Position numbers and translations under genes: made by a program. From Acidobacteriota bacterium (GTDB taxonomy: Bacteria; Acidobacteriota; Vicinamibacteria; Vicinamibacterales; JAKQTR01), in NCBI GenBank assembly GCA_026393755.1, contig JAPKZO010000040.1:231968-295967 (forward strand): a DNA stretch of 64,000 nt. The letters run 5' to 3'. Below are positions 33,554-47,949 of this stretch, in pieces. Numbering within the stretch: the first letter of the stretch is position 1; every line of letters starts with the position of its first letter. The notes below the pieces were generated by a model. That model had not been told where the DNA came from, made no database searches, and saw only the letters and a list, made by a program, of their open reading frames with translations.

Positions 33554-33582
33554 TTGAACGCCCCAGTGCGCGGGCGTATACT
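33554..33582 (+). promoter_or_regulatory. sigma70-type promoter candidate TTGAAC-N17-TATACT
   Basis: -35 at 33554-33559, -10 at 33577-33582, exact 17-nt spacer. 21 nt upstream of ATG 33604. Confidence 0.5.
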
Positions 33583-33603
33583 CGGGCCAAGAAGGTGGCG
33601 TCC

Positions 33604-34428
33604 ATGATGGGAGGACTGCTGTCGGCGTGCAGCCTCGCGGTCGTACTCGCGCTGCCGGGATCCGCAGGCGCGGGCGAGGTTCATCTCACCATTCAGAACG
33701 GCCGGGTGGCTTTGTCCGCGCGCGACGTCACGCTCCGCCAGGTACTTCTTGAATGGGAACGCGTGGGTGACACGCGCGTCGTGATTCGCGAGGGCGTTCC
33801 TGACACGCCGCTAACCCTTGAACTCGTCGACGTACCCGAGGAGCAGGCGTTGCGGACGCTGCTGCGGTCAACCCCGGGGTACGTGGCGGCGAAACGTCTC
33901 GAGCGAACCAGCGGCGGCTCGATGTACAGGCTCATCATCCTCATCGCGGCCACCGCGAGTCGTGTCGCGCCGTCGCAGACGGCACAGGGCGCAGAGCAAC
34001 TGTCGGCGCCCGTGCCTCTCACCGGACAAGGGCAGCAACGGATCGATCGGCAAATCATGCCGGACGGGCGAGTGATCGCTCTCCAGGAGAATCCGGGTCG
34101 CCCGAGCGAGATGCTCGCCGTGACCGATGACGAGCCGCCTCTCCAATCGCTTCCAGGCAATTTCCCCGTCATGGTGTTCGCGCCGGGCCAAATGCCGCAG
34201 TCTTCGCTTCAGGGCCAAGGCTCGGCCGATCTGCTGACGCCTGACTTGCAGCGGGGCCAGGGTCCGGGGAGCCAGATACCACCGACAACGCGAACGGCAC
34301 CGACTGCCGTGAAGTCTGCCCCAAGGCCGGGCATGGTCATCCCGGAGCCGCCAACTCCCTACGTCCCGGGAGGGGGCGCGCCACCGCCGCTCCCGCCGCA
34401 GCCACCGATCAAGCCCCCGGGGGTCTGA
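33604..34428 (+). CDS. hypothetical secreted protein, STN-like N-terminal domain and Pro/Gln-rich tail
   Basis: Signal peptide MMGGLLSACSLAVVLALPGSAGA. VTLRQVLLEWERVGDTRVVI..EEQALRTLLRSTPGYV resembles secretin/TonB N-terminal (STN) folds. The C-terminal half is low complexity (PPPLPPQPPIKPPG). Confidence 0.6.
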   Translation: MMGGLLSACSLAVVLALPGSAGAGEVHLTIQNGRVALSARDVTLRQVLLEWERVGDTRVVIREGVPDTPLTLELVDVPEEQALRTLLRSTPGYVAAKRLERTSGGSMYRLIILIAATASRVAPSQTAQGAEQLSAPVPLTGQGQQRIDRQIMPDGRVIALQENPGRPSEMLAVTDDEPPLQSLPGNFPVMVFAPGQMPQSSLQGQGSADLLTPDLQRGQGPGSQIPPTTRTAPTAVKSAPRPGMVIPEPPTPYVPGGGAPPPLPPQPPIKPPGV

Positions 34429-34499: not shown

Positions 34500-37280
34500 T
34501 CAGAACTCGAACGCCTGGCGGACGAGGAGATTGACTCCCGGGGCATCGACGCCGGACCCCATCGTCCGGTAGTTTCTGTCGAGCAGGTTCTCCACGAGCA
34601 GCGTCAGGTTCGCGCGGCGCGAGAACCGTACTCCGCCGCGGATGTTCAGCGTGACGTAGCCGGGGTTCCGCGTCACGAACGGTACCCGCGCGGTCAGATC
34701 CGGCCCCAGCACGCGCGTCAGCACCTGCGCCAGCGTCTCGCCGGTGGCGAGCAGAATCCCGCCCTGCACGAGATCGCGCGCCACCGCCCCGTTGTTGAAG
34801 AAGTTCGTCACTTCCTGCTGTGTGCGAATACCCCCGATGCGCGCCTGTTCGAGGTCATTGCCGGAAAGGCGCCGCTGCGCATCGGCAAAGTACGAGTAGC
34901 CCTCGACCCAGTAGCGGCGCCCGGGCGGCTCCCACCTGAGCCCGATCATTCCGTGGGTGGGCGGGAGACCGTTCTCGAGACCCGGTGGCAGGCCCGTGGC
35001 CGGGTCGACGCCCGTGATCGACGAAACGTTGCCCGTCAGCGCGAACGCCGAGCCGAGGCGCACCATCAGCGACGCCTCTGCCCCGCGCAATCGGACGCGT
35101 CCGGCGTTGGTTCGCACGAACACGGGCGAATTCGACAGCGACGTGTAGACGGCGCCTGCCGGATCCTGTCGGATGATCGACTGGCCGGCAATCACCTGAC
35201 CGACGGAACCGGCCGGCAGGATGATCATCTGACGCTCGATCAGGCTCGCAATCTCGGAATCGAAGTCCGCGAGCGAACCATTGACATGCAGCCGGTTCAA
35301 CCTCACGCCGGCCTCGTAGTTGAGAAGCCGCTCCGGCTCGAGGGCGCGAACGGGCCTGGCCTGACTGAGCGTGGTCGGCTGGCCTCCCGGCAACGGCGCC
35401 ACGGACGCGCCAAGCCGCACGCCTTCGTCTGGAGACACCTCGAACCCCATGCCCGACACGCCGATGGATCCGAGGTCATTCACATTCGGCGCCCGGAACC
35501 CGCGGCTGACCGTGGCCGTCAACACGATGTCATGGGACAGTGAGAAGGCCAGCCCGGTATTGAATGTGAGGTCGCCGAAACTGGTCCGGTAGTCCGGCAC
35601 AAGCGGCCCACCCGAACCGATCGCGTTGTTCTTGCCGGACTGGCGGTAGCTGAACCGGCTATAGCGGGCCGCCAGCGTCGCGCTGAGCCGATCGGAGAAC
35701 AACGGGAAACAATCCTGGCCGTAGAGGCCGACGGTGCGGTACCTCGCGCCGTTCGGGAAGCGCGCGCGAACCGCGGTCCCATCCGTAAACCCGCCGGTGG
35801 CCTGACTGTAGCCGAAATCCGTCCTGAGCGACGTCACGTATTCGTCGTAGATCTCCCCGCCGACGGCGAGCGAATGGGCCGCGCCGAGCCGGCGGGTTGC
35901 CTGAGCCTGATACCCGAACGCGTTCGTGCGATTGTGCTCGACGGAAACCGGCGAGCGCAGCCCCAGCTTGGCGTTGTTGACGCTCTGATAGGTGCGATCG
36001 TCGCGCTGCCCATTGAAGGAGCCCGCTGCCGACAGCGTGTCGAACCACGGCAGCCTGATGCGATTGTAGCGGACGGTGACCAGATCGAGCGTCTGCGGAT
36101 CGAATCGGTTGACAAGATTGCCGAGGCCGCCGTTCAGTTGGTCGTAGCGGCGGGCGCCGAGTTGCTCACCCCGGATGTACTGCAGCGTCACGGCGTCGTT
36201 GGCGCCGGGACGGATCGAGAGCTTCGAGCGGATCCCGTACCGGGTGAAGGCCGTGTCCTGGAGTCGGTCGCCCAGCACGGCCGACGGCAGCCCCAGCAGG
36301 CGAGTTGCGACCGAGTGCGAGTCGATGCCGCCGCCAGTCCGCAGGTCCTGCGCGCGCCGCGCCGTCGCGTCCATCAGGACGCCCCACTTCAACGACCCGC
36401 CGGCCAGCCGGAAGCTGCCGGCGACCGACCTGTCCGCGCTTTCGAGCGTCAGCGCGAAACCTCCGTCCACGCCGACACCGCCGCGGCCGCCGCCCAAGGG
36501 GCTCGTCAGGACGTTGATGGTGCCACCGAGGGAATCGGATCCGTACTGGGCCCCGTTCGGGCCGCGCACGATCTCGACGCGATCGACGAAGGCGGGATCG
36601 AGCAGGGCGGTGTACTGATTCGCGCCGGGCCGGAACGTGGCGTTGTTGAAGCGGACGCCGTCGACCAGCACTACGACCTGCTGACCCGTGAGGCCCCGGA
36701 TAAACGGCGACCCCTGGCTCGTGCTGGTCTGCTGGACGTAGACACCGGGCTCCCCAATCAGGGCGCGCGTGAATACTGCCATCTCACGGCGGCTCATCTC
36801 TTCGGTGCCCGTGACGGTCACCATCTGGGGTGACGTCTGGACATCCTGCGCGATCCCGCGCAACGCGGTCACCGTGACCGATTCGCTGACCGGCCCGATG
36901 CCCAGCGTGATGTCCAGGGTCACGCCCGCAGCGTCTCGAATCACCACCGAACGGCGGTGTTCGCCGAAGCCGGCCTTCTGCACGGCCAGGACGTAGGTGG
37001 CGGGGTCCAGTCGCTCGAGCCGGAACAACCCGCCGTCGTCGGTGAGGGTCGAGCAGATCTCGGTGTCGTTTGCGGTGAGCAGGATCACGCGAGCCCTTGG
37101 CACCGGCGCGCCGCTGGGGTCGAGAACGACGCCGCTCACACCGCCCGACACCGGGACGCGACCAGTCGAAGGCAGGGCAACTCCCAGCCACACGAGGAGC
37201 GCCAGGAGACCGATCGCAAACCTCGTTCGGAATCCGTTCGGACGGTCCTTCGCAGCATCCTGAAGTGGATCGTTCGTCAT
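34500..37280 (-). CDS. TonB-dependent receptor with N-terminal CarboxypepD_reg-like domain
   Basis: Ig-like VSGVVLDPSGAPVPRARVILL..DGGLFRLERLDPATYVL. Plug FIRGLTGQQVVVLVDGVRFNN. Long barrel ending in ..LVRQAFEF. ATG 37280 preferred over TTG 37286. Confidence 0.9.
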   Translation of the reverse strand: MTNDPLQDAAKDRPNGFRTRFAIGLLALLVWLGVALPSTGRVPVSGGVSGVVLDPSGAPVPRARVILLTANDTEICSTLTDDGGLFRLERLDPATYVLAVQKAGFGEHRRSVVIRDAAGVTLDITLGIGPVSESVTVTALRGIAQDVQTSPQMVTVTGTEEMSRREMAVFTRALIGEPGVYVQQTSTSQGSPFIRGLTGQQVVVLVDGVRFNNATFRPGANQYTALLDPAFVDRVEIVRGPNGAQYGSDSLGGTINVLTSPLGGGRGGVGVDGGFALTLESADRSVAGSFRLAGGSLKWGVLMDATARRAQDLRTGGGIDSHSVATRLLGLPSAVLGDRLQDTAFTRYGIRSKLSIRPGANDAVTLQYIRGEQLGARRYDQLNGGLGNLVNRFDPQTLDLVTVRYNRIRLPWFDTLSAAGSFNGQRDDRTYQSVNNAKLGLRSPVSVEHNRTNAFGYQAQATRRLGAAHSLAVGGEIYDEYVTSLRTDFGYSQATGGFTDGTAVRARFPNGARYRTVGLYGQDCFPLFSDRLSATLAARYSRFSYRQSGKNNAIGSGGPLVPDYRTSFGDLTFNTGLAFSLSHDIVLTATVSRGFRAPNVNDLGSIGVSGMGFEVSPDEGVRLGASVAPLPGGQPTTLSQARPVRALEPERLLNYEAGVRLNRLHVNGSLADFDSEIASLIERQMIILPAGSVGQVIAGQSIIRQDPAGAVYTSLSNSPVFVRTNAGRVRLRGAEASLMVRLGSAFALTGNVSSITGVDPATGLPPGLENGLPPTHGMIGLRWEPPGRRYWVEGYSYFADAQRRLSGNDLEQARIGGIRTQQEVTNFFNNGAVARDLVQGGILLATGETLAQVLTRVLGPDLTARVPFVTRNPGYVTLNIRGGVRFSRRANLTLLVENLLDRNYRTMGSGVDAPGVNLLVRQAFEF

Positions 37281-37407
37281 CGGCAATCTTCCATCGTGGC
37301 CTCACCAAGAGGGGCTTCGGTGCGGAACTCCCACGAACCTGTCGATTGTCGCCTGCAAGATCTTGACGTCGACCGGGCGATCCATCAGCGAGGAAACCCG
37401 TCGAGAA

Positions 37408-39153
37408 CTACTTGTCCATTCGGATCACGGCCGGTCTGGCCGTCCACGTGCCTCCCTTGTCTGAAACCGCCCTGGTCGGGGCGAATGTCTCGCCGAACAC
37501 GTTGTTGCTGCTCACCCACTTGATCTCGACGTCCGGCGTCCCGGGGCGGGCGACGTACGCCTCCGCCATTGCACGGAGGAACTGGGCCGCTGTCAGGCGC
37601 ACGCCTCCGACCATCACGTAGGACGGGACGGTGTTGCGAGGAACCGCCGTCCATTCCCCCGCCGTCAGAGCCGCCCGCACAGTGGCGCACTGCCTGACGA
37701 GCGCGCCCATCGGGATGCGGGCGCCGGTCGCCTGCCGGGCCGGGTCGGCAATCTCGATGGGCCCAAACAGGCGCAACGACTGCGAGTGGGCAGGCCACTC
37801 CGCCGGCGCCGGCGCGTCGCCGAGGGCGGTGACCAGAAGGCCGAAGACATCGGCCAGCGAGAAGTACCGCGTGGCGCCCCGAACAAACGGCGGGAGCTGG
37901 CCCTGCGCGGACTCGATCTGCGCGATCAGAGACGCCGCGACCGCGGTCAGTTCGGCGCGAGTGACAGGATCGGAGAGGCCATACTCGGCCCGGCCACTCA
38001 ACTCGCGGATGGAGACGAAGCGGCTGCCGGCGTTCGCGGGAAAGAACGTCGTCACCAGCCAGTCCAGCACGGCGTCTTCCTGTGCGTACATCGTCTCCCG
38101 TTCCTCCCGGGACCGCATCACCCCTGCCGGCAGGTCGGGAACCTTCACGTTGTCGTAGGCGTACTCCAGCGGCGTCAGGTAGTTGCGGGCGCCGAAGCCG
38201 GGCTTCGCGTAGACGCCCGGATGCCCGAGTCTGATCTGGATGACGTGGGGCCTCGATCGGTCCAATCCGCCGACCAGCTTGTCCAGGGCCTCCGGCCCAT
38301 CGTACGCGTTGAAGACCCGCTCGCCGAGTGCCCCGTAATCGGAGACGCGCAACGCGGTGTCGAGAAAAAACACCTCGGGGGCACAGCGCTCGTCGGCCGC
38401 AAGCATGTTGCTCACGATGGGCACGCCGCCGCGGTAGCCATCGAGATGGCGCGCCGGATACGCGGTTGTTTCGAGGAACCCGGCGAGAGCCGGCCGCGAA
38501 CCCAATGCCTCCAGCGCGTGTACCATCTCCCCCGCGTGCCAGGGCTCGAATGTGGCGCCGCGCGCGAAATCTACCCGACCGAACACCTCCAGGACCCGTT
38601 TGAACCCGCCCGTCCGGGATGGATCCGGTTCGCCGCTGTACGGGTGCTTCCACTCGGTCAGGAACCACTGCGTCGCCTCAAGCCGAGCCAGGTATCGCTT
38701 CTCGGGGGTATCGGCTCCCCGGAGGTTGGGCCGCGGTCTGGCCGCGAGGGCGGGTTCCTCCGTGCCGTCGTAGCCGACCTCGACCAGACCTCGCCGGGCG
38801 CCGTCGTTGATCGCGTCGACCAGGTGCGTCCCGTCGTTCTGGTCGGCAAGACGGTCGGCTGCCACGCCGGTGAACTGCACGAGGCAGGTGGGATGAAACG
38901 CGCCAGCACGCGCCTGGAGTCTATCAATCTGCCCAAGCGCCCGGGGCAGCCGCTCCATGCTGACCGGCACGTTCAGCACGTCGTCCACCGTGGTCTGCAG
39001 CATGACGTAGATGGGCGCTTTCGCCGCCACGACAGGCTGCGTGGGCGAAGGCGACGGCTCCTGCCGGGCCTGCTGCGCACGAAGCGTGATCGCCACGATG
39101 AGCACCAAGACCGCAGCAAGGAACCCGAAACCCGAGGCGAGGCGAGAGTGCAT
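37408..39153 (-). CDS. hypothetical exported protein (no family recognised)
   Basis: About 581 aa with signal anchor LASGFGFLAAVLVLIVAITLRAQQ. ATG 39153 has GAGG 5 nt upstream. Strong G/C third-position bias. 121 nt upstream of the TBDR on the same strand. Confidence 0.7.
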   Translation of the reverse strand: MHSRLASGFGFLAAVLVLIVAITLRAQQARQEPSPSPTQPVVAAKAPIYVMLQTTVDDVLNVPVSMERLPRALGQIDRLQARAGAFHPTCLVQFTGVAADRLADQNDGTHLVDAINDGARRGLVEVGYDGTEEPALAARPRPNLRGADTPEKRYLARLEATQWFLTEWKHPYSGEPDPSRTGGFKRVLEVFGRVDFARGATFEPWHAGEMVHALEALGSRPALAGFLETTAYPARHLDGYRGGVPIVSNMLAADERCAPEVFFLDTALRVSDYGALGERVFNAYDGPEALDKLVGGLDRSRPHVIQIRLGHPGVYAKPGFGARNYLTPLEYAYDNVKVPDLPAGVMRSREERETMYAQEDAVLDWLVTTFFPANAGSRFVSIRELSGRAEYGLSDPVTRAELTAVAASLIAQIESAQGQLPPFVRGATRYFSLADVFGLLVTALGDAPAPAEWPAHSQSLRLFGPIEIADPARQATGARIPMGALVRQCATVRAALTAGEWTAVPRNTVPSYVMVGGVRLTAAQFLRAMAEAYVARPGTPDVEIKWVSSNNVFGETFAPTRAVSDKGGTWTARPAVIRMDK

Positions 39154-39212
39154 GCGCACCTCTGAAACGATGCGAGTCTGAAACCGTCAGGACGCCCCAC
39201 GCTCCTGGCCCG

Positions 39213-39260
39213 AAAAAGCACTGGCCGAACCCTGAAACGTGTTCCTGGTCCGGCCAGTGC
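39213..39260 (-). terminator. intrinsic terminator after the PKD/toroid gene
   Basis: On the minus strand GCACTGGCCG..(23 nt)..CGGCCAGTGC is followed directly by TTTTT. Lies 36 nt downstream of the stop at 39296. Confidence 0.55.
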
Positions 39261-39295
39261 CGCGTCACAAACCGCCGCCGACCGATCGCGAAGCT

Positions 39296-41851
39296 CTAGC
39301 GGCCGGCGATCCTTGCCGTCACCTGGTTCGACTGACAGGTCTCTTCCAGGCTGGCGGTCAGCGGTCGCACCACCCAGTAGTACGTAGCGCCTACTGTGAG
39401 GCCTTGATCGATGTACAGCCGCTGCGTGCCCAGGACCTGGGCAATCCTCACGTATGGACCTCCATTAATGGTGCCGCGGTAGATCGCATACCCTGCCGCT
39501 GCCACGTCCGTCCAGTTGAGCTGGACCTGCCTGCCTGCGGCCCGAGCCGTGAGGACGGTGCAGCCCGCGCACTTGGGATCGTTTGCCGCCAGCACGTTGA
39601 CCTGGCCGGAGTCGGTCCCGAACAGGTCGGCGTGCCCGGGGAACGACACGCTGGTCCTGTCGGTCACCTTCAAGCGGATCAGGTAGCTGCCGACAGCCTT
39701 CGCCGCGAAGTAGGAGGTCACATCGGGAATCTTGGTGTTCGGGATTTCGCTGTAGACCCCGTCGTTGTTGAGATCCCACGCCCACGACACGATCGTGTCG
39801 CCAAGACAGCCAGGACAGGTCGGGTCCTTCGCGCCCTCGTCCGGGTTGACGGACTTGGAGCCGTCAAGGAACCAAGGGGTCTTGGCCGGGCAGAAGTTGT
39901 ACGGACCGCCGGCGTCGGCCGTCGGTGCGAGAGGCGGAATCGAGACCTCTACCGTCAGGATTGTGGTGGCCGTGGTGCCCAGGCCGAAGTTGTCCGTCAC
40001 CCGCAGCTTTATCTGCACGTTGGTCTGAGAACTCGGCGCGGTCCACAGTACGACGGGTCCGGTCAGATCGTAGGTGCCATCATTCCCGATGTCCCATTCC
40101 CACTTCACGATGCTCTTGGTGGGATCCTGGTGGAACGAGGCCGTCCCATCGAGAGTCACCTGGCCGCCGGTCACCGCGGGGTTCGGGATCGCCTTGGCCA
40201 CAGCCACCGGGGCGCCCGACTCGGTCACGGTCCGGTTGAGCATCTGGATCGCCCAGGATGTGTGGAAGTACTGTTGCTCTCCAGACCCGACGGCATAGCC
40301 CCACCAATAGCCGTCGGCCGCCTGACGGTTGACGAGCACTCGAGCGACACCGTCGCCCGCAGCGCCCTTGCTCATTTCGGCGGCGTACCAATCCAGATCA
40401 CCGCCGAGGAGCGTAATCGGTTCCTTCAGGGCAGTGGCCCCGTTGACGTGAAGCAGCATGGCCTTTACGAAGGCATACAGGCCATAGTAGTAATCCCTGA
40501 GGCCGCCGCCTGCACCGGTAAAGTTGTCGTGGATGTACTTCTCGGTCTTGTCCCACATGTGCAGCGGGTCACTGCTGCCGCGGCCCATCCGATCAAGGGC
40601 GAGTTGAACCAGTCCCGACGTCGTCGTGGCCCAGACCGACCAGGGGTTGTAGCCGGGCGAGTAGAGGAAGTAGCCGTAGATGCCGCCCGTGCCTGTCGTG
40701 TAGAAGGTCGTGGGCAGCCAGTACGGATTCGCCTGCCTGACTTCCTCCGGGATCTGGATTCCAGGGTCCGTCACGTAGCCGTACATCCCGTTGTACTGTC
40801 CCTTCCCGAAGCCTTCGGCGCCGAGAAGGACGATGGCTCCCCACTGAGCGGTGGAGTTGTCCGCCGAGCCCTGTTCCGAGTTGTAGTGCCACGCCCCGAA
40901 TCCACCCGTGTTGTTGCTGTTCTGGGCCTGGACGAACCAGTCGACCAGGTCCTGGAGAATGGCGCGGTACGTCCGACCCGTGACGTTCGCGTTGCCGGTG
41001 TCGGCAACGGCCGTGGGTGTTCCGCTCGCGGCCAGCGCGGAGGCGAACATGCCCGCCTCGTACATGTTGTTGACGACGGTGAGGGACAGAGCGTTCTTCG
41101 ACGGATCCAAGGCCGGGCAGCTCGTGCAGTCTGCGTTGATCGTACCCAAGCCGTGGTAGTACGTCTTGGACGCCGGGACGCCCCAGGCCGGGTCGATCAA
41201 CTCGAAGTACCGCCGCATCGCCCGTTGAACCGTCTCGGTGTACGGGTTCGACGCGCTGCCATCGACGCGGTGGCCGTTGACGAAGAACGCAGCCACGTTG
41301 GCGCCCTGCAGGCTCTCATATCCTGCGCAGGCGTACCCGCCGCACCCGCTCACCCAACTGCCGTAGTCCTTGCCGCCCCCCGAGTATCGGTAGAGCGTCT
41401 TATGGAGGTACCACAGCGCCTGATCGATGGCGATGTTGGCCTCAACGTCCAGGCTCCTGGCTCTCATCTGGATCAGGTAGGTAGCGGAACCGGATTCTGC
41501 GGTGTCCGCATTGGTGACCGTCAGGGTCGCCGCGAAGATGTCCCCCGGCGAGCCGGCATACACGTGCGTGGCCTCGAGGGCGTACATGTTGCCGCTGCTG
41601 ACCGTGCCGGTCGCATCAGGGGCGCCGTCACCGAAAGACCAACGGTAGGTGATGGTGGCACCGAAGGTGTCGGACGTGCCTTTCAGCGTGATCGCCTTGC
41701 CAGCATAGGTGTCGTGGGCGATCAGCGGGTTGGTGGCAACCCAGGGCACCGCCTTGACGACGGGTGGCGCAGCCATTGCGACAGTCGGCACGAGAAACGC
41801 CGCAACAATGGCGAGCGCTGAGACTAGCCTCCAGGGGATTCTCTTGAACAT
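39296..41851 (-). CDS. secreted PKD-domain protein with central alpha/alpha-toroid (prenyltransferase/terpene-cyclase-like) region and C-terminal FN3-like domain
   Basis: Start ATG 41851 (MFKRIPWRLVSALAIVAAFLVPTVAMA). PKD-like units (ITYRWSFGDG; IVKWEWDIGNDGTYD; SWAWDLNNDGVY). The central ~400 aa are rich in W/Y/G repeats (QALWYLHK, AQWGAIVLLGAEG, TSWAIQML). Tail LNWTDVAAAGYAIYRG. The toroid assignment is tentative. Confidence 0.75.
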   Translation of the reverse strand: MFKRIPWRLVSALAIVAAFLVPTVAMAAPPVVKAVPWVATNPLIAHDTYAGKAITLKGTSDTFGATITYRWSFGDGAPDATGTVSSGNMYALEATHVYAGSPGDIFAATLTVTNADTAESGSATYLIQMRARSLDVEANIAIDQALWYLHKTLYRYSGGGKDYGSWVSGCGGYACAGYESLQGANVAAFFVNGHRVDGSASNPYTETVQRAMRRYFELIDPAWGVPASKTYYHGLGTINADCTSCPALDPSKNALSLTVVNNMYEAGMFASALAASGTPTAVADTGNANVTGRTYRAILQDLVDWFVQAQNSNNTGGFGAWHYNSEQGSADNSTAQWGAIVLLGAEGFGKGQYNGMYGYVTDPGIQIPEEVRQANPYWLPTTFYTTGTGGIYGYFLYSPGYNPWSVWATTTSGLVQLALDRMGRGSSDPLHMWDKTEKYIHDNFTGAGGGLRDYYYGLYAFVKAMLLHVNGATALKEPITLLGGDLDWYAAEMSKGAAGDGVARVLVNRQAADGYWWGYAVGSGEQQYFHTSWAIQMLNRTVTESGAPVAVAKAIPNPAVTGGQVTLDGTASFHQDPTKSIVKWEWDIGNDGTYDLTGPVVLWTAPSSQTNVQIKLRVTDNFGLGTTATTILTVEVSIPPLAPTADAGGPYNFCPAKTPWFLDGSKSVNPDEGAKDPTCPGCLGDTIVSWAWDLNNDGVYSEIPNTKIPDVTSYFAAKAVGSYLIRLKVTDRTSVSFPGHADLFGTDSGQVNVLAANDPKCAGCTVLTARAAGRQVQLNWTDVAAAGYAIYRGTINGGPYVRIAQVLGTQRLYIDQGLTVGATYYWVVRPLTASLEETCQSNQVTARIAGR

Positions 41852-41897
41852 GCCCAACTCCTTCACGTCGCTCCGGGGGCCTTCTGACACACGAAGG

Positions 41898-41922
41898 CCG
41901 GCCGGGCGGCATGCCCGGCCGG
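41898..41922. other. GC hairpin CCGGCCGGGC-GGCAT-GCCCGGCCGG between the PEP-CTERM and PKD genes
   Basis: 10-bp perfect stem. Shares the central GGCATGCC with the type-B repeats. Lies 47 nt upstream of the PKD gene start. Confidence 0.5.
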
Positions 41923-42092
41923 TACCGAACCGGAAGACAGCATCAATGCACGGACTGCTGGCTCCAGAGCAGAGGCATCACACTTCACGCCAACAAACTA
42001 CAGACAGAGTCATGGCCGGTTCAGACGGCCGATACGCGCAACGGTGCGCGGCTCACGACCCGTCATCACACGCCCCGACAGAAAGTACGTCG

Positions 42093-42815
42093 CTAGGCTC
42101 GACGGCGCAGCCGCCGCGCGACCGCCGCCACGCCGAGACCGACCAGCGTAAGTGTGCCAGGCTCGGGAACCGGGTTCACACCGTCATCTTGCGTGGTTCC
42201 GGAGAAGTAGAGCGACTGCGCCGACAGCGGATCAACTTGCCGGAGGATGTAACCTGACACCGGCGCCACCGACGACACGGTGAAGATCACCTTCCTGGCC
42301 GGGTCCCCATCGTTGAGTGTGAAGGCGTAGCCGTATGCCACCGAGACGTCATGCCCCGGGGTATTCCAGGCCCAGTTGTCAAACGGATTGGAGGCATCAA
42401 ATGCAAGGAACTGGTCATAGATTGGCGGATCGACGGCCGACGGCCCATACGGATCGTCGCTCTTCCCGCTCCACCCGGCGGGCAGGGAGCCCCAATATGC
42501 CTCTTCGTCGAGGAACCCGTTGTTGTTCGGTTCGTCCGTGATCTGGTAGTCGAAGAACCCGGCCACGTAGTGGGTTCCCGGGGCGCTGAATGTAAACGTG
42601 ACGCTGCCTAGCCCCGTTGACATGTTGAAGGCCGAGAAGTCGGCTCCAGCGGGAAACGGAGGCCAGGTCGCCGGCGACGGATCGGTGTAGTACACGGCAC
42701 CGTCAATCGACGACTTGAAGCCCAACTCGGCCCAGGAGATGGTAGCGGCCTGGGTCACCGGAGCGGCGAAACCGAGAGCCGCCAGCAACACAACCAGGAT
42801 GACGAGTTTTCTCAT
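42093..42815 (-). CDS. PEP-CTERM sorting domain-containing secreted protein
   Basis: Signal peptide MRKLVILVVLLAALGFAAPVTQA. C-terminal VPEPGTLTLVGLGVAAVARRLRRRA is a PEP motif followed by a TM helix and a basic tail. Confidence 0.9.
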   Translation of the reverse strand: MRKLVILVVLLAALGFAAPVTQAATISWAELGFKSSIDGAVYYTDPSPATWPPFPAGADFSAFNMSTGLGSVTFTFSAPGTHYVAGFFDYQITDEPNNNGFLDEEAYWGSLPAGWSGKSDDPYGPSAVDPPIYDQFLAFDASNPFDNWAWNTPGHDVSVAYGYAFTLNDGDPARKVIFTVSSVAPVSGYILRQVDPLSAQSLYFSGTTQDDGVNPVPEPGTLTLVGLGVAAVARRLRRRA

Positions 42816-43204
42816 ACGAAACCCCCGTTATCGAGAAGAACTTGAGCAGATGGATGGACCGGCCAGCCCGTGCGAGGCGGCTGAAGCGGGTCGCCCGCAG
42901 TATGCCTCGGCGGGCGCTGTGACGCGGCTGTCTTCGCCCTCGTACTCATCGCTCCTTCAGTCGAGGCCATGAACTACTCGGGGACACGGGTACACAAATT
43001 CGCAAGTGACTGTGCAAAAAACGGTCCGCACAACCGAGAATCTCGTCTCTTGCTAAGTAGCTACTAGTGAATGAGTTATGAACTGCATGTCGCTCGAACG
43101 AGGAGTCAGTCTGCCACCGAGGAGACTATTGTCTCCATCGTCGCGCAAGGGACGGACATGTTCGACACTGACTGCGCGATTGGAAGAAGGAGCCGGAGGG
43201 ACCT

Positions 43205-46200
43205 CTAGAAGTCCACCCGCACCACCAACTGAGCCTGCCTCGGCGCCTTCGCCGAGAAAATGCGGCCGAAGGTGGCCGCCTCGTCGACATAATGCTCGGG
43301 CTGGTCGTAGTTCACCCGATTGAACAGGTTGAACACCTGCGCCTCGATCCACACTCGGCGATTCGCACCCAGTCGAATGCGGCGCGCGAGCGCCAGATCT
43401 ACCGACGAATAGCCGGGGCCCCGGAGGATGTTGCGCCCGGCGTCGCCGAAGGTGTAAGGCGCGGGCACCGCGAATGCGGCGGTATTGAACCACGCCGCTG
43501 CGCTCGGGCTGGAGATCGACGGACTGCCCACCAGGTCGGGGTGATCCGCGCCGCTTTGCTGCCCGGTGTTGCCCGTGTTGCTGTTGTCGAAACGCAGCAG
43601 CGGCGTCAAGGGCTGCCCCGACTGCACGGTCACGATGCCGCGCAGCTCCGTGTCGCGCGTCAGCGCATTCCCGGCCGGAAGCTGGTAGATGAACGATGCC
43701 CCGAAGCGGTGGCGGATGTCGAAATTCGACGGTCCCCACTGTGCCGCCACGTTCTGGCTGTCCTGTGGGAAATTCGGGTCCCCGCTCGTGCCCAGGAACG
43801 ACGAGCCGTCGTCCATCGACTTCGAAAGCGTGTAGATCGCCGACACCGAAACGCCGCGCACCAGCGGATGGTTCAGGGTGAGCTGCAGCGAGTTGAATGT
43901 CGAATGGCCGGCGCTCTCGACGAAGAAGATGCTGCCGTACTCCGGATAGGGCCGCCGGTCCTGCACGTCACCCGGGCCGGGCCGCGGCTGATTGAGGTCG
44001 CGCGGGCGGATCAGACTGGTCCCCTTGGATCCCGCGTAACTGACGGTCAGGGTCCCAACCGGCCCAACCTGCTGCTGCAGGCTCAGGTTCCAGTGCTGCA
44101 TCGACGAGGTGACCAGATCAGGGCTCAGCGTACTCAGCGATGCAGGCGGTGCAAACCCGCCGTTGGACGGGAACGGGTCGGCGAGCGTCAGCAGCGAGAA
44201 CTGCGTTGGAAAGAACACTCTGAGCGTGAATTGCGGCGGGTTGAAATACTGGGCCGAGTTCACCTCGAACATGCTCGCGTCGTAGTAGAGTCCGTAGCCG
44301 GCTCGCACCGCCAGCCCCGGGCGAGGGCGCCACGCCAGCCCGACCCGCGGCGCGATATTGTTGCGATCCGGCTGCATGCCGGCGGCCGGCATCCCCTGCG
44401 TGCCGACAGGCACCACCGTGCCGGTGGCGGCATCGAAGCTCGACATGTGGTTCGTCGGGTCGACAGCCGGCGTGTTGTACTCGTACCGCACGCCGAGGTT
44501 GATCGTGATATTCGGGCCGACCTTCCAGTCGTCCTGCGCGTAGATGTTGTAGGCGGTGGTGCGGAGCCGTAGCGTGTTGTCGGATTTCGACTGGAGGCCG
44601 AACGACGGATACCCAAGCAGCAGGTCGCTGATGCCGCTGCCCGAGATGAATCCGGAGAACGACAGGGACCCGCGAGCGAGAATGTCGAGATTGCCGTCGA
44701 GACGCTGGTGCCGGATCTCCCCGCCGAACCGCCAGAGGTGCTGCCCGCGGTCCAGTGTGACGGCCTGCGCGAACTGATACGTGGTGGTCTTCCGTTGGAT
44801 GGGGAGATTCGTGGAATCGCCGATCTTGGAGAACCCGGCAACCGTCATGCTGGGGTACCCGAAGTCACGCCCGGAAACCTGTAGCCAGTCGACGCCCCAC
44901 AACTTCCCGACGTCGGTCCCGCGGTTCTCGGGGAGGATGTCGCGGGCATAGCTGTTGAAACCGCCCAGGGTGGTGCTGATCGCGCGGCCGCCCAGCACGC
45001 GCTGGTACTGCATCATGGCGTTGTGCGCGGGGTCCCGGTAGGAGTTGCCGAAGCCGGGAACGGTTTCCGTGTCCTCGCCGTACGGGTCAATCGCGTCGAC
45101 CAGGCCGTGGTTGTAGCGCACGGTCAACTGAGCCGAGTCAGAGAGGCGATGATCAATCCGCACGGCGGCCTGATTCTGGCTCTCGCGAAGGGGTGCGTCG
45201 TACAGGTAGTTCCCGGCCAGCCCGGGCCGGTTGGCGTGCGGAAACAGATCGAGCACCTTGAGCGCAATCGGATCGATGCGGTTGACCGGCAGGATGTTGC
45301 CGTCGAACGGTTGCTGCGTGAACGGATCGATCACCGCCGACGGGAGTTCCGACAGGTTGCCGCTTCGCTGCAGGTCGGTCGGGACCGTCGACAGGCGCGT
45401 CACAGAGCGCCGCTCGCGCAGTAAGTCAAGGCTCGCAAAGGCGAACGTGCGATTGCGGAGCAGCGGGCCGCCGAGGCTCGCGCCAAACTGGTTTCGGTTG
45501 AACGGAGGTTTCACGCCCGGCTCGTCAAACGCGTCGCGGGCGTTCAAGACTTGATTGCGGAAGTACTCGTAGATCGCGAGTTCGAAGCGGTTGCTGCCGC
45601 TCTTCGTAATCACGTTCACCTGGCCGGCGGCACTGCGCCCGTATTCGGCGCTGTAGCTGTTGGTGGCGATCTTGAATTCCTGGATACTGTCAACTGGAGG
45701 CTGCACGACGTAGCGGTTGACGTACGGGTCGTTGTTGTCGACGCCGTCCAGCAGGAAGTTGTTGTACTCCTCCCGGCCGCCGTTGGCGTGCATCGCAAAC
45801 GACCCGCGCGACGACAGCTCCGAGCCCTGAGCCGCCGGATTGACACCCGGCGTGAGCATCGCCAGCTGCAGGAAATCCCTCCGATTCAACGGCAGTGACT
45901 CGATGCGCCGCTGGTCGATGATCGTGCCGAGATCGGCAGACTCGATCTGGACTGACGCGAGCGGCGCCGTCACCTCGACGGCCTGCACGACGCCCGCCAC
46001 GGGCAGATAGAAGTCGAGTCGCTGTTGACTGTCGACTGCCACCGTGACCTGCTCGCGCTGCACCCGCTCGAATCCCGGGGCGACCGCGGAGATGTCGTAG
46101 AGGGCCGGAGCCAGATCCGCGAAACGGTAGCGCCCGGTCCCATCGCTCACTGTCGTGCGATTCACCGCGCGGAGACCGTCGGACGCGACCATCGTCGCGC

Positions 46201-46342
46201 CGGCTATCGGCCTGCCGCTCGGGTCGATCACAGACCCGACGATCGTCCCCGTCGTCACCTGCGCCTGAACGGCGGCGATGCCCGCGAGGTGAAGAAGAAA
46301 CGCCAGCAGCGCGACGCGCCTCGTCCACGGGTTAGCACGCAT
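43205..46342 (-). CDS. Oar-like TonB-dependent transporter (CarboxypepD_reg domain plus large beta-barrel)
   Basis: ATG 46342 with GGGGGAG SD and signal MRANPWTRRVALLAFLLHLAGIAAVQAQ. GSVIDPSGRPIAGATMV..GRYRFADLAPALYDI. Oar-type region LPLNRRDFLQLAMLTPGV..ANGGREEYNNFLLDGVDNND. Ends ..QLVVRVDF. Confidence 0.9.
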   Translation of the reverse strand: MRANPWTRRVALLAFLLHLAGIAAVQAQVTTGTIVGSVIDPSGRPIAGATMVASDGLRAVNRTTVSDGTGRYRFADLAPALYDISAVAPGFERVQREQVTVAVDSQQRLDFYLPVAGVVQAVEVTAPLASVQIESADLGTIIDQRRIESLPLNRRDFLQLAMLTPGVNPAAQGSELSSRGSFAMHANGGREEYNNFLLDGVDNNDPYVNRYVVQPPVDSIQEFKIATNSYSAEYGRSAAGQVNVITKSGSNRFELAIYEYFRNQVLNARDAFDEPGVKPPFNRNQFGASLGGPLLRNRTFAFASLDLLRERRSVTRLSTVPTDLQRSGNLSELPSAVIDPFTQQPFDGNILPVNRIDPIALKVLDLFPHANRPGLAGNYLYDAPLRESQNQAAVRIDHRLSDSAQLTVRYNHGLVDAIDPYGEDTETVPGFGNSYRDPAHNAMMQYQRVLGGRAISTTLGGFNSYARDILPENRGTDVGKLWGVDWLQVSGRDFGYPSMTVAGFSKIGDSTNLPIQRKTTTYQFAQAVTLDRGQHLWRFGGEIRHQRLDGNLDILARGSLSFSGFISGSGISDLLLGYPSFGLQSKSDNTLRLRTTAYNIYAQDDWKVGPNITINLGVRYEYNTPAVDPTNHMSSFDAATGTVVPVGTQGMPAAGMQPDRNNIAPRVGLAWRPRPGLAVRAGYGLYYDASMFEVNSAQYFNPPQFTLRVFFPTQFSLLTLADPFPSNGGFAPPASLSTLSPDLVTSSMQHWNLSLQQQVGPVGTLTVSYAGSKGTSLIRPRDLNQPRPGPGDVQDRRPYPEYGSIFFVESAGHSTFNSLQLTLNHPLVRGVSVSAIYTLSKSMDDGSSFLGTSGDPNFPQDSQNVAAQWGPSNFDIRHRFGASFIYQLPAGNALTRDTELRGIVTVQSGQPLTPLLRFDNSNTGNTGQQSGADHPDLVGSPSISSPSAAAWFNTAAFAVPAPYTFGDAGRNILRGPGYSSVDLALARRIRLGANRRVWIEAQVFNLFNRVNYDQPEHYVDEAATFGRIFSAKAPRQAQLVVRVDF

Positions 46343-46696
46343 AACTCCCCCAGCAAGAAAAAGCGGACATCGCCGCCCTGCGATGCCGTTCCATCCTGAC
46401 GTCCTCAGGACACGCGGCAGCAGGCAGCTATCCCAAACGACCGAAATCCGGCGCACAGCATAGCACTACAGGCATGCTTAGATACACCGAGCCCGCCTGG
46501 CGATCCAGTTCCGGACGGCGCGTCTGTTCTCGCCGGCGGGCGCTCGGTCTGCCTGTCCAGAATCCTTCAGCTGTGCCCGAAGGGGGGTATTCTAGCTGCA
46601 GGCCAGTTTGTCACCCGGCGCGTCGCAAGGCCATCGAGTGGCGGCGGGCGTCCAAGAAAGATGGGGCGTATCGACAGGAACCGAAGGGACATGCAC

Positions 46697-47905
46697 ATGA
46701 GCCGGTGGATCACTGCGGCAGTGCTGATGGCGACGGCGTTCGCCGGGGCAGCGGGCCGGGAGCCGGTTGCGGCGGCCGAGACTCCGAGTTTCGCCGGCCG
46801 GTGGACACTCAACCGTGATCTGAGCGAGTTTCCGCGCGAAGTCGGCTTCGGCATCGTGATCCGGCCAGGGGCCGTTGCGGGCGAGCGGGAAGTCAGTGAG
46901 GCGGCCGCGTACGTGCCGCGGAAGGAGAGCGAAGCGGAAGCGCAAAACGTGAGGCAGTTGGTGGACGAAGTGCGATCGCCGTCCCCGCACCTGACGATCG
47001 TCCAATCGGAGACGGCCATCAGCATCACCGACGATCAGGGCCGATCGCGACGGTTTCATCCAGACGGAAAGGACGAGTTCCAGCCCCTTGCCGCCGCGCC
47101 TGTCGCAACGATGACGAGGTGGGAAGGCGCGCTGCTGGTGGTGCGGTACAAGGTGGAAAAGGACCGGGAGGTCCGGTACACGTACTCGCACAAGCTCGAT
47201 CCGGCGCAGTTGATCGTGCAGGTGCAATTCGTCGATCGCGGCGAACGAGACATCATTACGCGCGTCTACGAACCCGCGCGGGCCGATGAGCCCCCGACCC
47301 CGGCGGGCGCGGTCCCGGCGGGTGCCACCCCGGCTGGCGCGCCCCAGAAGCCGCCTTCGGATTTGAGGGGCGCGTCCAAGGCCTACGATCCGGGTCGGAC
47401 GGCACTCCCTCCCGCCGCGACCGATCCGGGCAAGCAGGACGTGCCGGCCGTGGCAGGTGCCGCCCAGGCGCCCATTGGCGGGGTAAAGCCTGATGCCGAA
47501 CTCAAGGGCATCACGAGGCTCGGTGTGGTGGTTGAAGGTCTGGATTCGTCGGCTGCGACGTGCGGGCTGAAACAGGATGCGGTTGAGGCGATGGTCTCGA
47601 AGAGCCTCACCGACTCCGGCCTGAAGGTCGCGCGCAATGCCGACGAGGACACGTACGTCTACGTCAATATCATGACGACAAGCATGACCACGGGCTTCTG
47701 CGTGTCCAGATACGACGCCATCCTCTATTCGTACACGATGGCGAAACTCTCATACTCGGAATCGCCCCTGCTCCTGCAGGTGTCGCTCCTGCGCAACGGC
47801 GGTGTCACCGGCGGCGCCGCAAGCACGCACGGCGGGGCTGTGGTCAAGGTGCTGAAACAGTACGTCGATCAGTTTGCCGCGCGCATCAGCAACGCCAACA
47901 AGTGA
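46697..47905 (+). CDS. hypothetical secreted protein
   Basis: Signal MSRWITAAVLMATAFAGAAG. ATG 46697 is preferred by spacing to GAAGGGA; 46691 and 46661 are also possible. A Pro/Ala linker separates two globular halves. No family recognised. Confidence 0.65.
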   Translation: MSRWITAAVLMATAFAGAAGREPVAAAETPSFAGRWTLNRDLSEFPREVGFGIVIRPGAVAGEREVSEAAAYVPRKESEAEAQNVRQLVDEVRSPSPHLTIVQSETAISITDDQGRSRRFHPDGKDEFQPLAAAPVATMTRWEGALLVVRYKVEKDREVRYTYSHKLDPAQLIVQVQFVDRGERDIITRVYEPARADEPPTPAGAVPAGATPAGAPQKPPSDLRGASKAYDPGRTALPPAATDPGKQDVPAVAGAAQAPIGGVKPDAELKGITRLGVVVEGLDSSAATCGLKQDAVEAMVSKSLTDSGLKVARNADEDTYVYVNIMTTSMTTGFCVSRYDAILYSYTMAKLSYSESPLLLQVSLLRNGGVTGGAASTHGGAVVKVLKQYVDQFAARISNANK

Positions 47906-47906: not shown

Positions 47907-47949
47907 CGCCGGATCTACCTCTTCGCCGGATCTACCTCTTCGTCGGATC
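47907..47949. repeat. 17-bp tandem duplication x2.5 (CGCCGGATCTACCTCTT) spanning the stop of the S9 peptidase gene
   Basis: Units at 47907-47923, 47924-47940 and 47941-47949 (one mismatch). The functional stop (47932-47934) lies in unit 2. Confidence 0.9.

Follow-up and report, generated by a model that had tools for sequence, protein, structure and literature searches.

A conserved, uncharacterised envelope cluster of soil Acidobacteriota built around a widespread PEP-CTERM/PKD-toroid gene pair

What might five neighbouring envelope genes of an acidobacterium, two of them for TonB-dependent transporters (TBDTs) and three for exported proteins, be doing side by side? The genes lie on the minus strand between positions 34500 and 46342 of the window, the whole stretch of 64,000 nucleotides analysed here. 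All five open reading frames (ORFs) are where a first-pass annotation had placed them, Pfam confirms its calls of an Oar-like TBDT, a PEP-CTERM tail and a second TBDT with a CarboxypepD_reg domain, and gene content kept across Acidobacteriota lineages supports its view of an uncharacterised but conserved envelope gene set. Conservation beyond close relatives, the test it had proposed for gene order, held for gene content and not for order, which is shuffled between Acidobacteriota loci; that the genes remain close despite this argues for selection on proximity. The five-gene cluster of soil Acidobacteriota is real, conserved and uncharacterised, and its role is most likely nutrient capture and import.

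No exosortase, glycosyltransferase or secretion gene lies in the cluster, as had been noted, and none turned up among 35 further window ORFs scanned with Pfam or NCBIfam, four ORFs called close to the ends of the window lying outside this set. The window also encodes a TonB_C protein (12762–13526), and no riboswitch (including the cofactor type) or known regulator hinting at a substrate was found. Gaps of 389, 241, 136 and 121 bp separate the five genes and, with a hairpin located in one of them, mean that they are not necessarily one operon.

Two adjacent genes form the core of the cluster. PEP240, a 240-aa secreted protein (42093..42815, minus strand), comprises an N-terminal signal peptide, a body of ~190 aa and a C-terminal PEP-CTERM sorting signal, VPEPGTLTLVGLGVAAVARRLRRRA, with PF07589 scoring 28.9 bits against a Pfam cut-off of 20.7. 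The body matches no named PEP-CTERM family, nor anything in PDB or NCBIfam; the NCBIfam matches to the protein are all below cut-off and cover the tail only. The partner, PKD851, has 851 aa and is likewise secreted (39296..41851, minus strand); it consists of a signal peptide, an Ig/PKD domain, a 12-helix (alpha/alpha)6 toroid, two PKD domains and an FN3 domain, PKD being matched in Pfam and FN3 recognised through PDB 3mpc. Both proteins carry Sec signal peptides, and no membrane anchor is seen in the PKD851 sequence.

That the core of PKD851 is an alpha-toroid, as the first-pass annotation had proposed, is borne out by the AlphaFold2 model (pLDDT 84, pTM 0.78), which has 12 helices within about residues 134–539 and beta domains on both flanks, and by profile homology. 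The core itself has no Pfam or PDB HMM match; it aligns to a family of secreted toroids related to squalene-hopene cyclase (SHC) at 96.7–98.4% in hhalign (controls at most 0.3%), and that family matches SHC 1gsz at E 3e-9. Model and profiles together identify an alpha/alpha toroid of the terpenoid-cyclase kind. Its superfamily is terpenoid-cyclase-like and not that of the six-hairpin glycosidases, and the same module also occurs inside giant multi-PKD adhesin-like proteins and an Rhs-repeat protein. At least 220 full-length homologues, at 44–70% identity, were found, and 247 species genomes contain relatives. Many Asp, His, Arg, Trp and Tyr residues of the toroid are invariant; a DxDD motif is absent from the window protein, whose core lacks both a CGEQ thioester motif and an invariant Cys, and no residues could be assigned to a catalytic site.

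The claimed intrinsic terminator between the PKD851 and unk581 genes (39213..39260, minus strand) was likewise confirmed: reading from 39260 to 39213, a 14-bp GC-rich stem is followed by TTTTT. Most of the related loci have an equivalent hairpin 3' of the orthologous gene, with strong ones at the same position in loci L001, L007, L030, L033, L049, L053, L055, L061, L065, L070, L006, L008, L013, L022 and L041, and the changes among the window, L001 and L007 preserve pairing. To judge from these sequences, the hairpin closes the PEP240–PKD851 unit or attenuates read-through. At the other end lies a spacer of 389 bp (42816..43204, minus strand), previously given as 390 bp, which does contain the reported 10-bp palindrome AGTAGCTACT at 43056–43065. 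Perfect 10-bp palindromes number 116 in the whole window, of which 10 are AT-rich, and the two closest relatives have not kept this one; as a regulatory site it has no statistical or comparative support. A block conserved in the clade, AGTCTCCTCGGTGGCAGACT (43127–43108, minus strand), is kept in L001 and L007 despite their differing upstream genes. Closer to PEP240, a terminator-like site comprising a weak hairpin and T-run (43036–43022, minus strand) overlaps a sigma-54-like GG-N10-GC element, CGGACCGTTTTTTGCA (43028–43013, minus strand), that scores 8/11; scores of at least 9/11 occur in 6/44 regions upstream of PEP240 homologues versus 27/880 background pieces.

The same arrangement, a ~240-aa PEP-CTERM protein encoded directly upstream of a ~830-aa PKD-toroid-PKD-PKD-FN3 protein, recurs in many phyla at about 45% identity. 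In half of the eligible loci (36/72) the PKD-toroid gene is preceded on its own strand, at 0–200 bp, by the gene of a PEP240 homologue; these loci belong to Acidobacteriota, Desulfuromonadaceae, Geobacter, Burkholderiales, Methylococcaceae, Chromatiaceae, Brocadiaceae, Pirellulaceae and some Verrucomicrobiota. A further 11 loci of Verrucomicrobiota, whose PKD proteins have an extra C-terminal domain, carry in the position of PEP240 a different ~240-aa PEP-CTERM protein with no detectable homology to it once the sorting signals are trimmed, and what is conserved is therefore the anchor. Judged by its gene neighbourhoods, the pair is a module in its own right that many phyla possess with no TBDT next to it, and the original idea that all five genes constitute one system does not stand.

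The remaining genes are distributed differently. Orthologues of the Oar-like TBDT (at least 900 bits) adjoin the module in 14/25 Acidobacteriota loci, unk581 is present in 19/25 and TBDT-B orthologues in 6/25, whereas each is found in 0/56 loci of other phyla. TBDT-B orthologues are seen in L001, L019, L033, L055 and L062 and, fragmented, in L060, with a partial copy cut at the locus edge in L030. Loci of the Bryobacterales type have the PKD gene, the Oar-like gene and unk581 in close succession or overlapping. Other neighbours include a cytoplasmic Methyltransf_2 O-methyltransferase, which recurs close to the pair at 10 loci (Acidobacteriota, Desulfuromonadaceae, Nitrospirae and Chromatiaceae) and whose gene in Bryobacterales overlaps one for a di-heme CCP/MbnH-like protein, and, in non-acidobacterial loci, a recurrent second secreted SHC-like toroid together with a YdjY-domain protein; methyltransferase, di-heme and YdjY genes are all absent from the window.

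The Oar-like TBDT (43205..46342, minus strand; 1045 aa counted from the ATG at 46342) has a signal peptide, CarboxypepD_reg and Plug domains and a large OMP_b-brl_4 barrel, matching PF25183 at E 9.7e-220 as well as PF13620 and PF07715. TBDT-B (34500..37286, minus strand; PF00593, PF07715, PF13620) combines CarboxypepD_reg and Plug domains with a classical barrel (PF00593, E 2.7e-35). Its nearest NCBIfam subfamily is that of heme/hemoglobin receptors (TIGR01785, 181.8 bits against a cut-off of 316.9), its sequence has no NPNL box, and the SusC/RagA model TIGR04056 gives only 32 bits.

Between them in the cluster, unk581 (37408..39153, minus strand) encodes a 581-aa exported protein which, as first described, matches no recognisable family: no sequence match was obtained in Pfam, NCBIfam or PDB. 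Its AlphaFold2 model (pLDDT 84, pTM 0.84) has a distorted beta/alpha barrel and helical domains, and Foldseek returns GH57 1k1x as best match (E 5e-6, TM 0.26–0.29), alongside GH57 5wu7, GH38 mannosidases and CE4 deacetylases. At the fold level the model thus bears a resemblance to GH57/GH38/CE4-like barrels. A distant relative contains Big_5, Big_9 and cadherin-like domains, which are frequent in secreted polymer-degrading enzymes. In L027, L033 and L053 the unk581 start overlaps the stop of the Oar-like gene by 1–4 bp, an arrangement indicating translational coupling, and in L087 one protein, P0148, encoded on a single metagenomic contig, has unk581 fused in frame N-terminal to a CarboxypepD_reg-Plug-barrel of the second-TBDT type. 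As there is no second signal peptide at the junction, the enzyme domain should lie on the periplasmic, N-terminal side of the TBDT. Coupling and fusion together place unk581, by prediction, in the periplasm.

Our tentative reading is of an Acidobacteriota-specific TonB-dependent capture-and-import locus around the widespread two-gene surface module. PEP240 and PKD851, adjacent and followed by the conserved hairpin, form a unit starting in the 389-bp spacer. An exosortase whose gene lies elsewhere in the genome would process PEP240, which would be tethered to the cell surface or exopolymer layer and could hold PKD851 there, since the latter has no anchor of its own; it is from synteny only that we infer an interaction between the two. 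The toroid might then bind, and perhaps cleave, an external substrate, with the PKD and FN3 domains serving as spacers. Family function and co-occurrence suggest that the product would cross the outer membrane in a TonB-powered step via the Oar-like TBDT and/or TBDT-B, and unk581 would act on this cargo in the periplasm, at the transporter mouth. For the substrate, our first guess is a glycan or glycoconjugate. Against the capture-and-import reading stand the affinity of the toroid to terpenoid cyclases rather than six-hairpin glycosidases and the missing DxDD motif. Moreover, because the pair has no adjacent TBDT in most phyla, the coupling to import would be a lineage-specific addition and may be indirect.

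Transport could also run outwards. Oar of Myxococcus xanthus is needed for PopC secretion (PMC6434023). By analogy, the window transporter, of the same PF25183 barrel family, might move PEP240, PKD851 and/or unk581 across the outer membrane. The route by which PEP-CTERM proteins cross that membrane is, to our knowledge, not established, the cluster has no T2SS or other secretion genes, and the Oar-like orthologue co-occurs with secreted proteins in those 14 Acidobacteriota loci. We nevertheless regard export as the least probable of the readings: the pair lacks an adjacent Oar-like orthologue in 56 loci of other phyla, so that a dedicated exporter of this kind would be unnecessary for it there, the cluster has two TBDTs of different types in a family whose general function is import, and P0148 and the translational coupling cast unk581 as a channel partner rather than cargo. 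These last observations lead us to lean towards import with periplasmic processing as the better fit.

A somewhat unlikely reading, though one with more in its favour, is that two independent units happen to be neighbours, PEP240–PKD851 being, as other PEP-CTERM proteins are, a matrix, adhesion or flocculation module and unk581 and the TBDTs serving nutrient uptake. The terminator hairpin divides the two, the pair stands alone in most phyla, the toroid is found in adhesin-like and Rhs-repeat proteins, and Oar-like TBDTs are in any case very numerous in Acidobacteriota. In addition, PepA, itself a PEP-CTERM protein, drives flocs to form and binds exopolysaccharide, and its gene too is followed by a stem-loop terminator (PMC9850573). 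Independence sits poorly, however, with the restriction of unk581, in the surveyed loci, to positions beside the pair, with Oar-like neighbours that are true orthologues (>1100 bits) and not random paralogues, with adjacency that persists through several rearrangements of order and strand, and with the tight packing in Bryobacterales-type loci. Distinctly unlikely, in our view, is capture of a hydrophobic small molecule, whether isoprenoid, aromatic or cofactor-like, in the terpenoid-cyclase-fold cavity at the cell surface and its transfer to the TBDTs, as a hemophore or surface lipoprotein would do. The SHC kinship of the toroid, the Methyltransf_2, di-heme, second-toroid and YdjY neighbours elsewhere and the heme-receptor affinity of TBDT-B would all accord with this, but the window lacks those neighbours and any cofactor riboswitch, TBDT-B reaches about half the heme-receptor cut-off and lacks the NPNL box, and the unk581 model resembles carbohydrate-active enzymes.

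How does the cluster compare with known systems? PEP240 shares with PepA (PMC9850573) the N-terminal signal peptide, the C-terminal VPEP-TM-Arg-rich sorting signal and a transcription unit closed by a stem-loop, and some of its homologues have sigma-54-like promoters, in keeping with a PEP-CTERM/exosortase cargo protein; it departs from PepA in its strict pairing with a large partner that lacks an anchor. The Oar-like TBDT resembles M. xanthus Oar at the family level, in barrel and CarboxypepD_reg N-terminal domain, and in being encoded near secreted proteins, but here those neighbours carry Sec signal peptides and a putative periplasmic enzyme is coupled or fused to the channel.

PKD851 has the twelve-helix toroid of terpenoid cyclases, protein prenyltransferases and thioester-domain proteins, including repeat motifs of the Q-x-x-GGW...D-x-S-x-x-W type and profile–profile homology to the secreted family matching SHC, whilst its Ig-flanked layout recalls complement/alpha-2-macroglobulin, complement C5 aligning over about 1000 columns. 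It differs from SHC and the complement thioester domain in lacking DxDD, CGEQ and an invariant core Cys, and in being predicted to be extracellular and paired with a PEP-CTERM protein. For unk581, the seven-stranded beta/alpha-barrel enzymes of GH57, GH38 and CE4 are the best structural neighbours, at TM-scores of only 0.2–0.3 and with no sequence-level match, and unk581 has additional helical domains.

The closest import systems are the polysaccharide utilisation loci (SusC/SusD) of Bacteroidota, in which a TBDT with an N-terminal CarboxypepD_reg domain is likewise encoded beside surface multi-Ig-domain proteins and a carbohydrate-active enzyme (putative in our case), and which follow the logic proposed here, from capture through import to periplasmic processing. 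The window cluster departs from them in having no SusD-like protein or lipoproteins: a PEP-CTERM/exosortase anchor presumably serves as the surface tether, the TBDT is of the Oar type (PF25183) rather than SusC/RagA, and a toroid with the terpenoid-cyclase fold is the candidate for the binding module.

On the minus strand, five long ORFs whose third codon positions are high in G+C occupy the interval 34500-46342, in a window of ~65% G+C that derives from an Acidobacteria MAG and has proteins identical to NTV05_18260 and NTV05_18255. ORF calls, Pfam and NCBIfam bear out all five genes that the first-pass annotation had placed on this strand. The Oar-like TonB-dependent transporter (TBDT; 43205-46342) belongs to the PF25183 type: Pfam finds a CarboxypepD_reg domain in its N-terminus (PF13620, E 1.5e-18), a Plug (PF07715, E 4e-5) and a large OMP_b-brl_4 barrel (PF25183, E 9.7e-220, residues 283-1076), and a signal peptide (MRANPW...AVQAQ) can be read at its start. 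The second receptor, TBDT-B (34500-37286), also carries CarboxypepD_reg. It was considered as a heme or hemoglobin receptor and rejected, since its scores are about half the cut-off (TIGR01785, 181.8 versus 316.9 bits; TIGR01786, 164.8 versus 323.8 bits) and its sequence has GFRAPN without an NPNL box. No SusC/RagA signature is seen on TBDT-B in NCBIfam (TIGR04056, 32 bits against a cut-off of 368), no cluster protein matches a SusD family in Pfam, and a lipobox Cys is absent from all five N-termini.

The 240-residue PEP-CTERM protein, PEP240 (42093-42815), has an N-terminal signal peptide and, at its C-terminus, the PEP motif, hydrophobic helix and basic tail of an exosortase cargo (VPEPGTLTLVGLGVAAVARRLRRRA; PF07589, 28.9 bits against a cut-off of 20.7, residues 215-238). 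Judged by these signals it is a bona fide PEP-CTERM cargo lying outside every named PEP-CTERM family: none (PepA, XDP1, FxDxF and others) scores above its NCBIfam cut-off, the best match being NF038129 at 24.9 bits against 65, and all matches are confined to the C-terminal signal. Identity with the flocculation protein PepA is ruled out by scores of 19-21 bits against a cut-off of 80; in addition, pepA lies upstream of prsT and not of a PKD gene.

Profiles of the five window proteins were searched against a comparison set of 81 non-redundant loci with ORFs called, and all neighbours were clustered. What emerges as the core is the pair formed by PEP240 and PKD851, the 851-residue PKD-toroid protein encoded at 39296-41851. 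At least 220 full-length PKD851 homologues were found at 44-70% identity, and among the genomes scanned relatives occur in 247 at species level, ranging over Acidobacteriota, Verrucomicrobiota, Planctomycetota, several proteobacterial orders, Desulfuromonadaceae, Geobacter, Syntrophorhabdaceae and Nitrospirae. A PEP240 homologue stands directly upstream of the PKD-toroid gene, on the same strand and with a gap of 0-200 bp, in 36 of the 72 eligible loci, in several phyla, and the pair is conserved at ~45% identity across at least eight phyla. Such conservation is unusual for extracellular proteins and speaks for a role as enzyme or receptor. Searches found no relatives in Pfam, in NCBIfam or among solved structures for the module's three component families, and our literature search returned no paper that describes the pair or the cluster, or that ties PEP-CTERM proteins to PKD/toroid partners or to TBDTs in Acidobacteria.

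The 11 Verrucomicrobiota loci are instructive here. In each (L009, L012, L014, L021, L023, L024, L031, L034, L035, L040 and L058, at ~9100-9900) another PEP-CTERM protein of ~240 residues takes the place of PEP240 upstream of the PKD-toroid gene. Homology between the two is not supported, the hhalign probability falling from 96% to 0.8% once signal peptide and sorting signal were trimmed. Because the replacement is non-homologous, the conserved feature is a small PEP-CTERM-anchored protein upstream of an anchorless PKD-toroid protein. The PKD-toroid proteins of these loci have an extra C-terminal domain of ~110 residues, which may be a co-varying docking interface. The toroid module is also found inside multi-PKD giants of 2000-4500 residues. 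In Halochromatium glycolicum DSM 11080 (L026, 3595-12640) it forms the N-terminus of a 2740-residue protein that continues as He_PIG Ig domains, PASTA domains and RHS repeats, an architecture resembling that of polymorphic toxins; its direct upstream neighbour is again a gene for a PEP240 homologue.

Pfam finds PKD domains in PKD851, and a match to PDB 3mpc marks a C-terminal FN3. An alignment-based AlphaFold2 (AF2) model (pLDDT 84, pTM 0.78) orders the protein as signal peptide, Ig-like domain, twelve helices, two Ig/PKD domains and an FN3-like domain. The first-pass annotation had called the core a toroid, and rightly so, because the model has the twelve helices of an alpha/alpha toroid at residues 134-539 (pLDDT mostly 75-95). 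The core gave no Pfam match at E values up to 10, a Pfam search with 32 diverse cores found nothing, and PDB gave no match whether the core was searched singly or in profile form. Foldseek with the whole model returned mostly FN3 and Ig chains, together with complement C5 aligned over ~1000 columns. The link to a known fold comes from a family of 389-residue secreted proteins that recurs next to the PKD-toroid gene in non-acidobacterial loci and matches squalene-hopene cyclase (SHC; 1gsz, E 3e-9) and, weakly, SQHop_cyclase_C and TIGR01787. Core and family align in hhalign over ~310 columns at 96.7-98.4% (E down to 7e-15), as against ≤0.3% for reversed and unrelated controls. By this indirect, profile-level homology the core is a divergent (alpha/alpha)6 toroid of terpenoid-cyclase/prenyltransferase type. 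Two specific identities were rejected. A class II terpene cyclase of squalene-hopene cyclase type would need the catalytic DxDD motif, which is absent from the core of the window protein; likeness to an alpha-2-macroglobulin/complement thioester domain is limited to the one Foldseek match to C5, and the core has neither CGEQ nor any invariant Cys. The toroid is thus within the terpenoid-cyclase fold superfamily and outside every catalytic family tested.

The other three genes have a much narrower distribution. The gene for the 581-residue exported protein, unk581 (37408-39153), accompanies the pair in 19 of 25 Acidobacteriota loci and in 0 of 56 from other phyla; for an Oar-like orthologue (at least 900 bits) the figures are 14 of 25, plus one frameshifted assembly, and 0/56, and for TBDT-B 6/25 and 0/56. 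Among the 81 loci, the presence of these genes beside the pair is Acidobacteriota-specific. Conservation had been proposed as a test of the cluster, and the answer is divided: gene content is kept across the Acidobacteriota loci and gene order varies. The window reads Oar-PEP-PKD-unk581-TBDT-B; one of its two closest relatives, L001, reads PEP-PKD-unk581-Oar-TBDT-B; L003, L025, L027, L033 and L053 read PEP-PKD-Oar-unk581; and in L019, L061 and L062 the Oar-like gene is divergent and upstream. That content is kept despite rearrangement is good evidence for functional linkage. In L060 (Acidobacteriota MFD02979.bin.2.72, 10576-21302) all of the PKD, unk581, Oar-like and TBDT-B genes are present as dozens of short ORFs, a fragmentation that resembles long-read assembly indel errors more than pseudogenisation.

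The absence of any recognisable family for unk581 held up in Pfam, NCBIfam and PDB sequence searches, and an exhaustive profile search gathered 396 representatives of its own family. Its AF2 model (pLDDT 84, pTM 0.84) lies nearest in Foldseek to a GH57 4-alpha-glucanotransferase (E 5e-6, TM 0.26-0.29), followed by a GH57 branching enzyme, GH38 mannosidases and CE4 deacetylases at TM-scores of 0.2-0.3. Membership of GH57 was rejected, as neither protein nor profile gives a sequence match and the likeness is confined to the fold; at the level of fold, the model hints at a carbohydrate-active beta/alpha barrel. The protein is linked to the transporters in two ways: the end of the Oar-like gene and the start of unk581 share 1-4 bp in L027, L033 and L053, and in L087, a locus with the same gene set, one of the 396 family representatives (P0148, 8001-12365, 1454 residues) fuses an unk581-family domain in frame to an entire CarboxypepD_reg-Plug-barrel TBDT, and the junction carries no further signal peptide. 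This fusion, known from a single metagenomic contig, amounts to a TonB-dependent transporter with a 560-residue enzyme-like periplasmic N-terminal extension. N-terminal extensions of TBDTs are periplasmic, and together with the fusion this makes it most likely that unk581 partners the channel in the periplasm.

Thirty-six nucleotides past the PKD851 stop codon begins a hairpin (39260-39213) with a 14-bp GC-rich stem followed by TTTTT. The intrinsic terminator claimed here is confirmed, both by this stem-loop and U-run and by the retention of its position in relatives: most loci have a strong hairpin after the PKD-toroid gene, also where unk581 is next, and the changes among the window, L001 and L007 (the other closest relative) keep the pairing. 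A conserved hairpin marks PEP240-PKD851 as its own unit, one that is probably expressed above the downstream genes. The PEP-CTERM gene pepA has likewise been described as a hairpin-ended unit (PMC9850573).

The palindrome AGTAGCTACT picked out in the first-pass annotation is present at 43056-43065 but has no special status among the window's 116 perfect palindromes of 10 bp; for this reason, and because it is not conserved in L001 and L007, we reject it as an operator. A better candidate regulatory site, on sequence conservation, is a 20-nt block in the 389-bp spacer, AGTCTCCTCGGTGGCAGACT (43127-43108, minus strand), of the form AGTCNCC-N6-GCAGACT, its two ends forming an AGTC/GACT inverted repeat. 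Its conservation extends to L001 (6965-6984) and L007 (8898-8917) only; in all three it lies upstream of the PEP-CTERM gene for PEP240, at a distance of ~300-345 nt, and is kept despite their differing upstream genes. A sigma-54 promoter for PEP240 was also considered: sigma-54-like elements (at least 9/11) lie upstream of PEP240 homologues in 6/44 regions versus 27/880 background pieces, a modest enrichment, and the weak 8/11 site in the spacer (43028-43013) is not convincing. No riboswitch or known RNA element that might give a clue to the substrate is present in the window.

The cluster is set within an unusually dense group of large secreted peptidases (26438-33314 and 47932-56778), comprising M16 (26438-29806, plus strand), tricorn-like PD40/S41 (29880-33314, minus), S9 (47932-50265, minus), M3 (51448-53610, minus) and M14 (53644-56778, minus) enzymes. 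Neighbour clustering found no peptidase family that recurs across the related loci; in L087 an S9/tricorn-like peptidase also comes after the cluster. Opposite-strand ORFs with high third-position GC flank the cluster (33265-34428, plus, 387 residues with a Pro-rich C-terminus; 46661-47905, plus, 414 residues); these putative genes have no Pfam or NCBIfam match. As the first-pass annotation had it, no exosortase, glycosyltransferase or secretion gene is seen by Pfam or NCBIfam in the 40 ORFs scanned of the 64-kb window, itself part of a 377-kb contig (the scan left out 23832-25328, 58768-59844, 59888-62017 and 62335-63999). The sole TonB candidate in the window, a TonB_C-domain protein (12762-13526, minus), lies ~21 kb from the cluster and directly upstream of a PEGA-domain protein (11900-12760, minus), and neither ExbB nor ExbD is seen in the window. 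Elsewhere in the window are a molybdopterin dehydrogenase trio of xanthine-dehydrogenase/CO-dehydrogenase type (8200-11800; MoCoBD large subunit 8200-10380, 2Fe-2S subunit 10398-10910, FAD-binding subunit 10928-11800) and a putative type II toxin-antitoxin system (56915-57885), in which the gene for a PIN-domain toxin (56915-57301, minus) overlaps that for a Phd/YefM-type antitoxin (57298-57885, minus) by 4 bp.

Several families absent from the window recur beside the module elsewhere, namely YdjY-domain proteins (13 loci), a cytoplasmic Methyltransf_2 O-methyltransferase (10 loci in four phyla including Acidobacteriota), ASPIC/UnbV FG-GAP proteins (10 loci), the 389-residue SHC-like toroid (9 loci) and a di-heme CCP/MbnH-like protein (6 loci). 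Examples are found in L006 (13223-16322), L069 (13149-15080), L041, L042, L054, L075, L078 and L025 (7842-10381). The Methyltransf_2 gene overlaps the di-heme gene in Bryobacterales, and the YdjY-domain protein adjoins the secreted SHC-like toroid near the pair outside the window's clade. The recurrence of YdjY, SHC-like, Methyltransf_2 and di-heme genes suggests a small-molecule step linked to the module.

The best-supported reading of the cluster, which we hold tentatively, is one of surface capture, TonB-dependent import and periplasmic processing. PEP240 and PKD851 are Sec-exported, as their signal peptides show; an exosortase encoded elsewhere would, going by the PEP-CTERM family, anchor PEP240 at the surface, where PEP240 would hold the anchorless PKD851, as the strict synteny and the non-homologous replacement of the anchor suggest. 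The toroid might then bind or cleave an external substrate, the product of which would be imported by the Oar-like TBDT and TBDT-B, in keeping with family function and co-occurrence, and processed in the periplasm by unk581, a role to which gene coupling and the fusion point and whose chemistry is hinted at by fold alone. That the pair and the remaining genes are instead two independent neighbouring units seems to us unlikely: it would fit the hairpin and the loci in which the pair stands alone, and sits badly with the 19/25 versus 0/56 distribution of unk581.

Capture by the toroid of a hydrophobic small molecule, an idea to which the terpenoid-cyclase fold gave rise, together with the methyltransferase and di-heme genes that recur, we consider distinctly improbable. 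Least probable is the proposal of the first-pass annotation that the Oar-like barrel is an export route, for which the sole backing is the Myxococcus xanthus precedent, where Oar is reported to be required for secretion of the protein PopC (PMC6434023); this analogy is weakened by the pair standing alone elsewhere and by the attachment of unk581 at the periplasmic side of the channel.

Acidobacteriota rank with the most abundant bacteria of soil, and their genomes code for very many Oar-like TonB transporters; to our knowledge, hardly any of these has a known substrate or partner. The cluster gives one Oar-like orthologous group testable, recurrent partners: the surface pair, a further transporter and a putative periplasmic enzyme. 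Its conservation is a solid result. If capture and import are indeed what the cluster does, for which the chances are reasonable but short of even, its novelty would lie in being a TBDT-linked surface capture locus that uses an exosortase anchor. More doubtful is the broader proposition that a PEP-CTERM protein, and not a lipoprotein, holds a terpenoid-cyclase-fold capture protein by Oar-type transporters, the pair being an unrecognised pan-phylum surface module with the toroid as enzyme or receptor; in a still bolder variant, the Oar-like barrel would supply the outer-membrane step so far missing from the display of PEP-CTERM cargo. Were the anchoring model true, PEP-CTERM proteins would be docking platforms for anchorless partners, adding a non-lipoprotein solution for surface capture upstream of TBDTs, and exosortase-anchored capture beside Oar-type transporters would constitute a new architecture for TonB-dependent nutrient capture. 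Amongst known systems, the cluster fails membership of the SusC/SusD polysaccharide utilisation loci (PULs), having no SusD, no lipoproteins and a barrel of Oar type rather than SusC type; in its working, it would be most like a PUL-type capture-and-import locus.
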